A stretch of 54,978 nt of DNA from assembly GCA_036230545.1 (NCBI GenBank), contig JAZAIZ010000177.1:1-54978 (forward strand). Direction: 5' to 3'. Source of the DNA: Myxococcota bacterium. GTDB lineage: Bacteria > Myxococcota > XYA12-FULL-58-9 > JABJBS01. The notes beneath the pieces are model-generated. The model saw nothing but the letters and a program-made list of their open reading frames with translations. It made no database searches and had not been told where the DNA came from. The position numbers and the translations under genes were made by a program. This document shows positions 7,051-16,760 of the stretch, piece after piece (position 1 is the first letter of the stretch; each line of letters starts with the position of its first letter).

Positions 7051-10000
7051 TTAACCACCAAACTCGGTGACGTAGGCCATGTCTCGCATGATATCCAGCG
7101 AGCTGGCGCGCTCATTCACGCCGGCCTCAGCCTTCTCAAGCACCACCTCCGCCGCCAGCAGGGCGTCACGGTTAGCGCTTGAGTTCAGAGTCTCGTAGTT
7201 GGCCTTGGCAGTTTGCCACGTGGTCAACGCAGGAGCATAGGTGCTGTCCGCATACTCCTGAGCTTCCGTCAGCATGTGAGCGCCGAAGTGCATCTCATAG
7301 TTATCCTTCGCTTCTTTCATCTCCAGATAAGCCCGATGCAATTCCTGCTCGTCTACCCCGCCAGTGGCCTTGAGTGTGAGGTAATCCGCCTCAGCAATAT
7401 CCATCAACCCAGAGAGGGTGAAGGGCTGCATCTGCGCATCGTCACTCTCCAACACCCCGGGGCTGTGGTAAGTGTAGCCGGTGATGGGATCAACATAGGT
7501 TGTGATGTTGGCATCCATGGTGCCGTCATCGTTCAGGTCAGCTTCCATGTCCATGCAGTCCCGATAACCATTGAGACAAACCCGGCCGTAGGACGAGTAG
7601 TCGATGGTATAATCGTACATGGAGTTAAAACGAACCATGGGGAGCACCGTCGCGTAATAACGCAAAGTCCAGCTCCAGGAGCCTGCAATTTTGGGCAAGT
7701 CCATGGCTGAGGTGTCCCGAACGTAGTCTTCATCAGCGATGTCGGCTTCCTGCTTCTTGTAGATGTCCACAATGGGCAGCTCCAGAAACTTACCGTCGGT
7801 ATCCAGACGCCAGGAGAAGTCACCGTGCTTGCCAGTGATGGCCGGTCCAAAGAACTTCACCATCTCCGGTCGGAGGCTTCTCCAGTAAGAGAGAGAGAAA
7901 GAGCCCGAATCAAACCAGTCCGAGAAGTTCCGGTAGAAACTGCCTTCGTTGTAGGTCATGGCCCACAGCGCGACATATTTATCCCAGTAGGTGCCGATTT
8001 GAGTCACTTTGTAATTGTACTCATCAGTCCACTTGGTGCGTAGGTTCTTACCAACTCCCAGGGGAATCTCCAGTTCGTCTCCAGCCGCGCAGCCAGGCAG
8101 AATATTGCCTTCGCCGTCATCCCAGTGAACGTAGGTGTTGTCGTCATTCTTACAGTGCCAACCCGGCTCTGGCTGGTTCACCACCGAGGCCAGGTAGTTC
8201 AACCCTTCCATAGCGGATGCCTGCCAATCCCGACCAACACCGAAATCCGTCAGGTAGAGGTAGTCGCCGTTTTTGTCATAGCCCATGCCGTTATTTCCGT
8301 AGAAATAGTATCGGTACACACCAGACATGGCGCTGAAATAGCGAGAGTACAATCGATAAGCATAGCTTCCCAGATTCAGACCAAACTCAAAGCGGTCACG
8401 CTTGAAGTTCGAGAATACATAGTAGCGGTCATGACGTAACGCGCGGTCCTGAATGACCTCAGTCATGTTCGCGCCTTTGTCCCATGCCTGGCATCGCACG
8501 TTGGACTCCCAACGATACTCATCCGGACAGAAGGCGTAAGGAACCTCATCGTAAGGAATGTCGTAATCCACATCGTTGTGATAATCACTCCACTCTTGGT
8601 AGAGCACCTCGTTGGGCACAAACTTCCGCTTGGAGATGTTCTCGGGCTTGGGCGCAGTGGTCTTCAACGCGTCCTTATAGTAGCTGTTGATGTGGCGACT
8701 ATAGAGGGCGTAGTTGGTGTCCGCGGTCACCTCATCATCAGCGCTGGCATAATCACCATAATAAGCGTTCGCCATGCTGTAATCGGGATGACAGTTCTCA
8801 AAGCGGCTGGGGCACGACAGGCTGCCATCAAACACCTTCGGAATGTCGTGGTAGCTATTGAGGAAGAGGAGGCTCTGATAACCCAGGGCCGCAAAATCTC
8901 CATCAAAGACTTCAACCATCTCGCCATAACCAAAGTGAATCGCCGCGTTGTCATAAGGGCCAATGCCCTCAAAGGAGTCGGCATAAAAACGAGCATCGTA
9001 ATCCATGATGGTGGAGTACATCAGACGCTCTGCTTTAGTGGGCTCCTCGTTGTCATCCACGTATTGAATCTTCTCCTTCTGCACATCGTAATGGTCCCAG
9101 AAGGAGTGGTGGAAGTTCAGAGGATCCATGGAGCCTTCGAAGTTGTGACGAAGCCCGATGGTGTGTCCCACCTCGTGCGCCATAACTCCGCGGTAGATGT
9201 TCTCACGCATGAAGCTGTAGATCTCTTCCCAGCTCATGTCTTTCAGCTCAAGGGCCATGGAAGCCATGCCCTCATCAGCCCAACTTTCAAGCAGAATGGT
9301 GTCTTCAGCCAGTCGTTTCTCAAAAGCGTCCATAGCCTTCTGATAACCAAACTCGTCCATGGTCCAATCAAGGGCGCTGAAGTCCCGGGCGCCGTTGGAG
9401 GTTCCCACACCAGGCTGGAAACCGTCCGGTCCAAGGATACCACGACGATGCTCATCGCTGGTGAGCAGCTCTCGGTCGATACGAGAACCACGCAAGCGCT
9501 GCAGCTTGGCGCGAGAGGTCGCCGTGGCCATCTCCCGCATCTCAGGGGTCATCGCGGGAGCGTTAATGTTCACCCGCAGGGCACCCTTAGCCATCTTCTC
9601 AGGAGCTGCGCTGTTGAACGATCGCTCCATGTGATTTTGAGCGCGGAACTCACGATTCATGCGCTCCATTTTCTCGAGGTCAAAGCCAGCGTGTCGAGCC
9701 TGCGCATCGGGGATGTCGGTGTTAAAACGATGAGACTTCATGTGCTCACGCACGTGGGTCCCGTTCACCATATTCGCCATATCGATGTCGTTGTTCATCA
9801 ACTCAACAATGTCCGCAGCATAGGCGGAGAGTCGGTCGATGGAAGCACCGTAGATGTTGGCGTTGGCAGAGATCAACTCACCAGAGATAGGGTCAGCCGA
9901 GGAGGGGCCATAGCCCAGAGGACCATTTTGAGGAGTGTCCACCCAGTGGAAAAAGCTGTGACGAAGGTCCGCGGTCTTTTCCCAGGTGAAGTCGCCCTTG

Positions 10001-15500: not shown

Positions 15501-16760
15501 TTAGAACGTTCCTGACAGACTGAATCCGAAGCCACCAAAGTTGGACGCGATGTTGTTCACGTCGCCACCCTTGTCTTCGTTATCGGGGATAGCACTCGCA
15601 TAGCCAACATCGGTGCCGAGCGAGTTGTAGAAGAGCGGCCAGCGGATCGACTTCTGGTCTGCACGCCAGACGCCGTGAGCCGTTGAAATCCCCATGGAAG
15701 CGCTAAGGCTGAAGGGCAGGTCCACCGCGTCCCCCAGCTGGCCCGTAATATCGTAAGACAAATCAATGGAGGTGGAGAAGCTGTCCGAACCGCCGCGGTC
15801 GTTTTGAGCGTTGTCCGCCTGCAGCTCGTCGCTATCAGGATAGTTGTTGAGATTGCGTCGATTGGTGAGGCCCACCGAATAACTCAAGCCGAGATGCTCG
15901 GTGAAAGCATAAGAAGCGCTGAACCCATTTCGAATGCTGAAATCAGCGTTAGGGCCACCGCGGTGACAGCGATAGACATCCTCATCGTTGGCGTCCTTGC
16001 CCAGGCTACAGAGCGCTGCGTCCGCTTGAGCTACCGCCTGCTCCGCCTCCCGCACCTGCGAGCTCATCGCCACTCGAACATTGGACCCATAAAAGTATTT
16101 GGTGAAGCCAAAGTTATAGCTCAGGCTAAGACCACCAAATTTACGCGAGACTCCAAAGGACGTCCCCAAAACGCTCCACTTCTCGGCGTGGATGCTCTCC
16201 GGTGAGGTAGGCAGACTAAGAGAGAGACTGCCGCTCAGGTTAATGCCCGTAAACTCATCCTTGTAAATTGAGCCATCGGCCACCCGCAGCGAAAGGTCTC
16301 GAAGAAAGACCCGCTGCCCCACGGGGTTGTTGGGAGTCGTCAACGCCATTCCAAGTCCCCACCCTGCGCGGGCGGAGAGCTTGTGCCCGAGGACATCAAA
16401 GCGGTAGGTCCCGCTAAAGCCCCAGGACTGCGTGACATCGTCGTAATAATCTCCAGAGGGACCGCTCACAAAGGTGCCAGTTCCAATGTTGTGGCCCATC
16501 GAGACACCGGCACTCCATGGCTTGGTGTCTTTCTTCTCGGAGTCTTCCTCGGCAACGACTGCAGCTGCGGGCGCCTCCTGAGACTCGGGAAGGGCGGCGG
16601 GTGCCGCTTCGGCAACCGCTTCTTTGTTCGGAACTTCCTCAGTAACCTGCTCAGAGACAGGATCCTGGGCTGCCGGCTCACCGGAGTCAGCCGCCGCAAA
16701 TACGGGGGGTGTAAAAGACAGGATTAATAGGACGGCACTAACAAGGGCATTTATTCGCAC
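15501..16760 (-). CDS. Uncharacterised outer-membrane beta-barrel protein
   Basis: GTG start with GGGAG RBS; signal peptide ending VFA-A; acidic disordered linker; many alternating amphipathic strands (WGFSGTYRF, LSLSYNFGF, FSASYAF, LSYSVGL); C-terminal GFSLSGTF beta-signal. Confidence 0.8.
   Translation of the reverse strand: MRINALVSAVLLILSFTPPVFAAADSGEPAAQDPVSEQVTEEVPNKEAVAEAAPAALPESQEAPAAAVVAEEDSEKKDTKPWSAGVSMGHNIGTGTFVSGPSGDYYDDVTQSWGFSGTYRFDVLGHKLSARAGWGLGMALTTPNNPVGQRVFLRDLSLRVADGSIYKDEFTGINLSGSLSLSLPTSPESIHAEKWSVLGTSFGVSRKFGGLSLSYNFGFTKYFYGSNVRVAMSSQVREAEQAVAQADAALCSLGKDANDEDVYRCHRGGPNADFSIRNGFSASYAFTEHLGLSYSVGLTNRRNLNNYPDSDELQADNAQNDRGGSDSFSTSIDLSYDITGQLGDAVDLPFSLSASMGISTAHGVWRADQKSIRWPLFYNSLGTDVGYASAIPDNEDKGGDVNNIASNFGGFGFSLSGTF

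Follow-up and report, generated by a model that had tools for sequence, protein, structure and literature searches.

A predicted outer-membrane beta-barrel is encoded beside giant putative lipoprotein metzincins in Myxococcota, Bdellovibrionota and Gammaproteobacteria

How large lipoproteins reach the Gram-negative cell surface and are retained there is only partly understood, and earlier partner systems (SusCD, Slam and the type II-dependent lipoproteins) each changed the picture of lipoprotein surface display. Here we analyzed a trio of genes for a predicted outer-membrane beta-barrel and two giant putative lipoprotein proteases, A and B, of the metzincin type. The trio lies in a stretch of 54,978 nucleotides from a Myxococcota bacterium (contig JAZAIZ010000177.1 of assembly GCA_036230545.1, our contig C177), which we refer to as the window. 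The source assembly is a metagenome-assembled genome of 3.39 Mb in 413 contigs, with a completeness of 87%. An earlier reading of the letters alone, referred to below as the original prediction, had proposed that the three genes form an undescribed surface protease machine. While the types of part in this locus are known, the obligate pairing of barrel and protease, the architecture of the enzymes and the elaboration into A and B are not described.

The Slam (type 11 secretion) systems, which offer a possible functional analogy only, encode an outer-membrane barrel beside the lipoprotein or lipoproteins that it serves. The barrel of the present locus has no match to DUF560 or to a TPR domain in Pfam, its N-terminal 57 residues are a low-complexity sequence of Ala, Glu and Pro, and its possible cargo is a giant protease, whereas the cargo of Slam is a TbpB-like binding protein. 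The SusCD/RagAB loci and the type II-secreted metalloproteases SslE, TagA/StcE and CpaA likewise represent large lipoprotein hydrolases at the surface with an outer-membrane or secretion partner. In contrast to SusCD/RagAB, the barrel here is small, lacks a plug domain and is not TonB-dependent. The Peptidase M66 profile (PF10462, StcE/TagA) gave no match in A or B at E-values up to 0.1, and a homolog from Vibrio harveyi reached 24.6 bits against it, in a match confined to 40 residues at the zinc site. With the type V autotransporters the likeness is one of fold only, as barrel and proteases are encoded by separate genes with their own signal peptides and no POTRA match was found. The nearest solved folds of the barrel are FapF and the COG4313 channel Pput2725, both 12-strand-type barrels, with about 240 residues aligned at 10–11% identity. 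The barrel has no Pfam match to either family, and the operon holds neither amyloid subunits nor aromatic-degradation genes. The N-terminal extension of FapF is a coiled coil, whereas that of the gene 1 product is of low complexity. The COG4313/Phenol_MetA_deg profile (PF13557) found nothing in the barrel at E-values up to 0.1, and a Pfam match to the FapF family was likewise missing, the neighbours of the barrel being metzincins, a dehydrogenase and a methylase; in both cases the likeness is confined to the fold.

For the enzymes, the astacins and serralysins (MEROPS M12A and M10B) have in common with A and B the HExxHxxGxxH motif and the SxMxY Met-turn with its Tyr. They differ in that A and B are putative lipoproteins rather than secreted zymogens or type I secretion substrates, and carry a helical insert of about 190 residues in the core as well as large flanking domains. 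Here the third His is followed by Asn, where astacins have Glu and serralysins Pro. A search with the family profile against the Protein Data Bank (PDB) returned marginal matches at the zinc site, the best being an astacin-family hatching enzyme (3vtg, E-value 0.023, a marginal likeness with both motifs aligned), and a sequence search with B gave no PDB match at E-values up to 1. The best structural match of the A core is EcxA (4l6t), the A subunit of the EcxAB AB5 toxin of E. coli. EcxA differs in being a toxin subunit of 266 residues that is paired with a B pentamer and has neither a barrel partner nor a lipid anchor, and its sequence likeness to the A/B family is limited to the zinc helix (E-value 0.34).

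The closest named family is DUF4953 (PF16313, 'Met-zincin'), which has no described function. A (35.4 bits), B (37.3 bits) and every examined homolog score above its cut-off of 24.2 bits at the zinc site, but the match covers only profile positions 11–158 in A and 12–35 in B, out of 316, and is similarly partial in 14 further homologs. In A it spans residues 725–870, the zinc region only, and about 1,200 residues of each protein lie outside the profile match. It had been predicted that about 1,000 residues of each protease would fall outside any named domain, which holds for both Pfam and NCBIfam. A search for homologs of B returned 244 proteins; all of the 120 listed carry PF16313, and where they have a name at all they are annotated as 'zinc-dependent metalloprotease', 'Met-zincin' or hypothetical, with two apparently misannotated names. 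A full-text literature search found no paper on DUF4953, and, judged by title and start of abstract, none on the protease family or on its pairing with a barrel, although supplementary tables with locus tags could exist. In the literature, Pfam and NCBIfam searches the system had no characterized match, in line with the original description of it as new.

The barrel gene had been expected to be conserved next to the proteases, and we found this linkage far beyond the source genome. Among 40 relatives, 25 of the 31 barrel matches have a listed metzincin match beside them on their contig; for the other six the neighbourhood could not be read in the listed rows, and one of these was later found to be adjacent as well. 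When 20 loci were fetched, an open reading frame (ORF) matching the barrel profile adjoined the metzincin gene or genes in 16. In a 151-genome sample of the phylum the barrel is present in 77 genomes, and the best 30 barrel loci all have an adjacent metzincin on the same strand (29 besides the window's own), which lies downstream of the barrel in 25 and upstream in five. One relative (G012) has the gene order A-B-barrel, so that the order has changed and the linkage has been kept. Genomes with several protease loci carry several divergent barrels, for example on contigs C332, C185 and C228 of relative G002, and in the source genome itself contigs C102 and C376 carry the two parts of a second locus of barrel and protease. 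Orthologs of B in the relatives reach 44–58% identity. We are highly confident that barrel and lipoprotein metzincin, or metzincins, constitute a functional module.

Further metzincin-like and barrel-like genes of the source genome can be described as follows. The second barrel gene (C102 3–698, minus strand; C376 1–582, plus strand) is cut by the contig break, with the same peptide stretch at both ends, and is followed by a fourth metzincin paralog (C376 606–3458, plus strand), which has an intact zinc motif and is cut at the contig end. A DUF4953 paralog of 1278 residues with an intact motif is encoded at C274 4445–8278 (plus strand), with a Cys-rich, lipoprotein-like ORF divergently upstream. 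A 1044-residue protein at C291 8181–11312 (minus strand) scores 42 bits against DUF4953 without having the strict HExxHxxGxxH pattern; the 326-residue ORF after it ends in GRY and has no match to the barrel profile.

The linkage also recurs outside the phylum. Using an iterated barrel profile, which was built on a set of 80 metzincin-centred loci themselves, we examined 25 loci from Bdellovibrionota, Oligoflexia and Gammaproteobacteria. In 21 of them the profile matched an ORF of about 280–300 residues that directly precedes the metzincin gene, and the remaining four lie at contig edges with no upstream DNA. The Bdellovibrionota and Oligoflexia carriers include Bdellovibrio sp. HCB290 and Bacteriovorax stolpii, and the gammaproteobacterial carriers are Vibrio harveyi, Vibrio sp., Photobacterium sp., Aeromonas australiensis and Ferrimonas kyonanensis. 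Aligned to the original barrel alignment, the V. harveyi barrel ORF reached an hhalign probability of 86% (E-value 4.8e-6, 177 columns), and the V. harveyi protease matched the protease profile at 99.9% (E-value 8e-33) over 839 columns that include the lipobox (LAGC) and the N-terminal domain. A search across Myxococcota and Bdellovibrionota had been proposed at the outset. Both groups do carry the module, but it is not confined to them, being present in Vibrionaceae, Aeromonas and Ferrimonas as well. In Pfam and NCBIfam the barrels outside the phylum are unnamed, and one of four touches the generic PF13505. The barrel of V. harveyi DSM 19623, on chromosome 2, has homologs in many Vibrio species (among them V. 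parahaemolyticus, V. vulnificus, V. cholerae and V. natriegens) as well as in Photobacterium, all annotated as hypothetical, 'outer membrane receptor protein' or porin; this list is based on homology, and adjacency to the protease was examined within the 80 metzincin-centred loci.

Protease A, the barrel-proximal paralog, is encoded at 11375–15454 on the minus strand (precursor of 1359 residues from ATG 15454), and protease B, the distal paralog, at 7051–11313 on the same strand (1420 residues from ATG 11313). Both have a charged n-region and a hydrophobic h-region followed by a lipobox, as in bacterial lipoproteins: VVGC in A (Cys54 of the ORF, 15377–15388) and LVAC in B (Cys39 of the ORF, 11251–11262). 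The zinc-binding motif reads HEIGHNIGLRH in A (residues 733–743, 13310–13342) and HEVGHTIGLRH in B (residues 731–741, 9145–9177), and the Met-turns SSIMDY of A (residues 782–787, 13178–13195) and STIMDY of B (residues 785–790, 8998–9015) follow 39–44 residues downstream. Two lipoproteins of about 1,400 residues with HExxHxxGxxH and an IMDY Met-turn had been claimed from the letters, and we read these motifs in both ORFs. The two paralogs are 29% identical over 1329 columns (E-value 3e-141). An alignment of 64 family members has no variation in the H, E, H and H of the motif, in the Met and Tyr of the Met-turn or in several Cys residues, and the zinc motif and Met-turn are therefore not due to chance. 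In the 20 fetched loci, HExxHxxGxxH is retained in all 38 metzincin ORFs, the S/T-x-MDY pattern occurs in 33 of them and a lipobox in 27, the last by a crude pattern rather than a dedicated predictor. The stretch right after the lipidated Cys (C-A-G-D-V-x-D-I-D-R, then VQP; 15350–15376 in A and 11224–11250 in B) is conserved in both paralog clades. Conservation directly after the lipidated Cys is unusual, as the tether of a lipoprotein is normally variable.

We then modelled residues 55–1254 of the protease A ORF. The model is one compact body with a mean predicted local distance difference test score (pLDDT) of 83 and a predicted template modelling score (pTM) of 0.86. It suggests a beta-rich N-terminal domain (residues 55–320, 14579–15376, with strands at model residues 25–293), a metzincin catalytic core (residues 321–823, 13070–14578, with VIA-align matches over model residues 267–769) and an alpha-helical C-terminal domain (residues 824–1219, 11882–13069, with helices at model residues 771–1164). 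A C-terminal tail follows (residues 1220–1387, 11378–11881), which ends in IYEHGAEL and of which residues 1255–1387 lie beyond the model; all these features are on the minus strand. The predicted core contains a helical insert of about 190 residues (527–714) before the active-site helix. It matched EcxA (4l6t_A) at a Z score of 10.3, with a root-mean-square deviation of 3.2 over 188 aligned residues and 15% identity, followed by serralysin 1akl (8.0), proMMP-9 (7.7), archaemetzincin (7.4), snapalysin (7.4) and astacin (6.9), so that the modelled core has the metzincin catalytic fold at Z scores from 10.3 to 6.9. The C-terminal domain had generic helical-repeat matches only, with Z scores of 7 or less by VIA-align. 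A Foldseek search with the whole 1200-residue model gave nothing at E-values up to 1e-3. The metzincin identity assigned from the motif pair was strengthened by the fold matches and by DUF4953 scores above the cut-off. Taking sequence and model together, A and B are predicted metzincins of a distinct, uncharacterized family, and are putatively lipidated and proteolytically active.

Two leads on protease A were dropped. DUF5117 (PF17148), an N-terminal companion domain of DUF4953 in Bacteroidota, was suggested for the N-terminal domain by a language-model feature at 0.78, below the level of trust, and was not confirmed by Pfam in 10 proteins: the profile had no match at E-values up to 0.1 in A or B, nor up to 1 in eight homologs. 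A Met-rich stretch (13760–13879, residues 554–593) has nine Met in 40 residues, at a place in the helical insert where the model is poor, and conservation of this stretch is lacking in 12 orthologs of A.

The barrel gene (15501–16760, minus strand) starts with GTG and encodes 419 residues with the C-terminus SGTF. Residues 1–23 (16692–16760) form a putative signal peptide, with the cleavage site VFA|AAD read from the translation and a helix at residues 2–15 in the model. The following extension (residues 24–80, 16521–16691) is Ala/Glu/Pro-rich and of low complexity (14 Ala, 11 Glu and 6 Pro in 57 residues), has a pLDDT of 23–45, and is variable and longer in homologs; it is presumably periplasmic and disordered. 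An AlphaFold model based on 15 homologs had a poor overall pLDDT of 64, with the barrel blocks mostly at 85–94, and contains 12 long strands (by the DSSP string) and three long loops. A C-terminal Phe or Tyr is present in 14 of 15 aligned barrel homologs. The hydrophobic signal sequence, the closed antiparallel barrel of the model and the C-terminal aromatic residue, all features of outer-membrane barrels that are BAM substrates, agree with the barrel ending in Phe that the original prediction had named, and by its model the gene 1 product is a small barrel of the 12-strand type. No Pfam family (at E-values up to 0.1) or NCBIfam family was assigned to it, PF13557 occurs in 21% of the members of an Atlas cluster of Myxococcota barrel relatives, and a scan of the genome contigs with the barrel alone gave 50 pattern matches, none of which was confirmed. 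Compared with 48,161 chains by VIA-align, the model was closest to the COG4313 channel 4rl8 (Z score 17.5, root-mean-square deviation 3.5, 245 residues aligned) and to FapF 5o65 (Z score 16.9), which was also the top Foldseek match (E-value 1e-7). Uptake channels followed (KdgM 15.9, VhGalP 15.2, NanC 14.7 and Tsx 13.2), together with the autotransporter translocators AaaA, EstA, NalP and AIDA-I (14.5–15.3) and Hbp (between 14 and 15). Because this fold class holds uptake channels as well as polypeptide exporters, the fold does not fix the function of the barrel or the direction of transport.

In a tree of 42 proteases, A (barrel-proximal) and B (distal) form separate clades, each of which spans the order and more distant genomes, and the singletons form a third group. 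By these sequences the A/B duplication is ancient and neither copy appears decayed, which fits a non-redundant or heteromeric function of the two. The trio assumed at the outset is real, but it is a lineage-specific elaboration, by this ancient duplication, of a two-gene module. The C-terminal tails are specific to the clades. Tails of A (11375–11400) follow Y/F-E-x-G-x-x-L/Y, for example YEHGxxL, and are kept in 12 order-level orthologs, and those of B orthologs (7051–7075) read E-F/W/Y-G-G or SDVFEK; they might be sorting or partner-binding tails.

For the joint action of these parts, we propose that the ancestral module would have consisted of a small 12-strand-type barrel and one lipoprotein metzincin of 1,100–1,400 residues, with an N-terminal beta domain, a zinc core carrying the helical insert and a C-terminal helical domain. 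The marine Myxococcota lineage studied here would have duplicated the protease gene long ago, with A and B sharing one barrel and keeping their catalytic residues. The barrel would be the dedicated membrane partner that docks the lipid-anchored enzymes at the outer membrane; it possibly assists in their placement at the cell surface, and peptides may pass through it. The enzymes would cleave proteins at the envelope, which would feed an amino-acid-based metabolism. We give a probability of roughly one half to this reading, in which the conserved outer-membrane module serves surface or outer-membrane proteolysis with the barrel as docking partner; the physical contact, the membrane face of the enzymes and the substrate are parts of it that we infer. 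Of the surface machine imagined originally, the conserved adjacency and the intact metzincin lipoproteins stand, while the heteromeric complex of the barrel with A and B stays putative.

A complex prediction bears on the contact between the partners. It was run with the N-terminal domain of A (266 residues) and barrel residues 78–419, on our own alignments and with an only rough calibration. The complex score was 0.33 (runs of 0.33, 0.00 and 0.35), and the best of three controls scored 0.00. In the calibration, 58 of 80 solved complexes and two of 110 mismatched pairs attained the mark, and scores of 0.60 or under comprised only seven of the 80 solved complexes and both passing mismatches. The runs agree in at least 9% of contacts, the pLDDT of the partner is at least 64, and no interface was reported. 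For the expected interface this is weak support, with a score above the controls but one run at 0.00, and the prediction nudges the odds slightly towards a contact between the barrel and A and decides nothing.

Several observations weigh against the docking reading. Among the 80 metzincin-centred loci, the first profile found a barrel next to the protease in 26 and the iterated profile did so in 43, and of the 37 loci without a barrel, 10 have no upstream DNA, leaving 27 informative negatives that are nearly all singletons from Myxococcota. Four of the 20 fetched loci also lack an adjacent barrel (three, in G024, G033 and G030, are tandem pairs from more distant genomes, and in G008 the barrel is on another contig), as does the paralog on C274 of the source genome; a search of the barrel-less protease loci for a shared alternative neighbour found none. 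The iterated profile may drift to generic barrels, and the independent hhalign check reached only 86%. The nearest folds of the barrel mix uptake channels with secretion barrels, so that the fold does not set the transport direction, and a folded protein of 150 kDa with conserved cysteines cannot go through a lumen of 12 strands. The complex prediction scored weakly, with one of its three runs at 0.00 and no interface given, and the transcription of the trio as a single unit is read from gene structure (the gaps and one terminator). Finally, the probably unrelated flanking genes for a dehydrogenase and a CxxCxxCC-domain protein are also conserved within the order, and therefore order-level synteny alone proves little.

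The barrel could instead be a substrate-specific diffusion channel that admits the peptides released by the surface proteases to the periplasm, co-regulated with them but without a stable complex. The COG4313 channel, KdgM, VhGalP, NanC and Tsx are indeed among its nearest folds (Z scores 17.5 to 13.2), PF13557 turns up in the Atlas cluster of its Myxococcota relatives, tight operon linkage is also typical of nutrient-acquisition loci such as polysaccharide-utilization loci, and within the order the locus lies beside an amino-acid dehydrogenase. However, every protease locus comes with a divergent barrel paralog of its own, which would be less expected if the barrels passed similar peptides; many family members have no adjacent barrel, the dehydrogenase accompanies the locus within the order only, and the weak complex score leans slightly to contact. 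We regard such a channel as possible but doubtful. A translocon role, in which the barrel would transiently carry all or part of each lipoprotein through the outer membrane to the surface, like Slam, FapF or an autotransporter beta-domain acting in trans, appears improbable. The likeness to the polypeptide-secreting barrels FapF, NalP, EstA, AIDA-I and Hbp speaks for it, as do the single barrel per locus, which resembles translocators encoded beside their cargo, and the conserved post-Cys stretch C-AGDVxDIDR, which could be a recognition or threading segment. But the DUF560 and TPR hallmarks of Slam are missing, barrel and passenger are separate genes unlike in type V secretion, barrel-less family members exist, and a compact cargo of 1,330–1,400 residues (pTM 0.86) with conserved cysteines would be hard to thread through a 12-strand lumen.

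The enzymes might also face the periplasm, at the inner leaflet of the outer membrane, and process or degrade specific polypeptides on their way in or out through the barrel, or take part in envelope quality control, rather than serve nutrition. Outer-membrane lipoproteins are placed on the periplasmic face by default sorting, both ends of an even-stranded barrel and its long acidic N-terminal extension would be periplasmic, and the very long retention of two paralogs with active motifs would suit distinct, specific substrates. With no substrate or regulator gene conserved in the module, enzymes far larger than the known periplasmic quality-control proteases, and carriers that by their record titles belong largely to predatory or protein-degrading groups, which fits feeding, we consider an envelope-internal role very unlikely. 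It is hardly credible that the barrel is an unrelated porin kept adjacent by inherited synteny or shared expression only. The dehydrogenase, barrel, A, B and CxxCxxCC genes do form a syntenic block within the order and some protease loci are barrel-less, but the best 30 barrel loci of the phylum sample all adjoin a metzincin, in differing contexts and two gene orders, the pair recurs in three phyla without shared flanking genes, and among the listed rows with a readable neighbourhood the barrel match lies beside nothing but a metzincin.

Bolder than docking as such is the idea that the barrel acts in trans as the dedicated insertion and anchoring partner of a lipoprotein enzyme of about 150 kDa, as an unrecognized display or secretion device that would extend from Myxococcota and Bdellovibrionota to Vibrio, with A and B as a heteromer on one barrel; one possible route would be the threading of the conserved post-Cys segment through the barrel. 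We consider this unlikely, but if true it would be a new route of surface display. The linked pair of three phyla joins a barrel that is unnamed in the databases to a protease that is named only at its zinc site, and could constitute a new family of metzincins with an accessory fold that is also new. Predatory bacteria and marine heterotrophs are among the carriers. Protein scavenging or prey digestion in the sea may commonly proceed through this module, and since culturable, genetically tractable carriers exist, direct tests are possible.

At the level of the locus, the three co-oriented ORFs occupy 15501–16760 (419 residues), 11375–15538 and 7051–11367 on the minus strand. With ATG 15454 for A and ATG 11313 for B the intergenic gaps are 46 and 61 nt. 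These starts were chosen for a Shine-Dalgarno-like stretch before and a signal peptide after them, and are to be taken as inferred because longer in-frame starts are present in both ORFs; with them, the predicted gaps are exact. Gene B is followed by an intrinsic terminator at 6995–7028 (minus strand), a 15-pair stem with a TTCG loop and a T-run, which bears out the strong UUCG terminator noted before. Terminator-like sites in the region number 8, not above the 8.8 found in shuffled sequences, and the one after gene B has by far the longest stem. The 404 nt between the dehydrogenase and barrel genes (16761–17164, minus strand) are the presumed promoter region. As had been said, this region is AT-richer, with 44.8% GC against 59.6% for the window, but a sigma-70-like consensus scan placed none of its three matches in the scanned region within 16761–17164; a promoter presumably lies there all the same. 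Judged by gene structure, the three genes likely form one transcription unit. Overall, re-examination of the sequence confirmed the genes, spacing, motifs and terminator as first observed. At least half of the sampled words of the locus occur in seven public runs, which come from four named seawater or marine metagenome studies, one of them possibly the source; no RNA run is listed among the runs matched to locus words.

Upstream of the barrel lies a Glu/Leu/Phe/Val dehydrogenase gene (17165–18307, minus strand). The dehydrogenase flanks the module in eight order-level loci, and a gene for a CxxCxxCC-domain protein flanks the other side in 10. As the dehydrogenase is present in only two of the 80 metzincin-centred loci, both from the same order, we regard it as part of a syntenic block and not of the module. 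The leucine dehydrogenase had been taken as a link to amino-acid catabolism; the same-strand neighbour is there, but with order-level synteny only it is weak evidence for that link. A gene for an N6/N4 DNA methylase (6091–6948, minus strand; PF01555, E-value 1e-32) separates protease B from the CxxCxxCC-domain gene. In relatives (for example locus L030) the CxxCxxCC gene directly follows B, a tblastn search of 20 related loci gave no match to the methylase, and by this comparison the methylase gene looks like an insertion in the source genome. A rhomboid protease with a TPR tail is encoded at 19047–20786 (plus strand), 2.3 kb upstream of the trio, and one is also near the locus in L035, L041 and L080; beside it we mention that protease B ends in Gly-Gly. 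The trio and its close flanks (about 6000–18000) have a GC content of 54–55% (54.7% for the trio) against 60–65% on either side, though the locus is old and syntenic, and across the whole window the GC skew of the plus strand is strongly negative.

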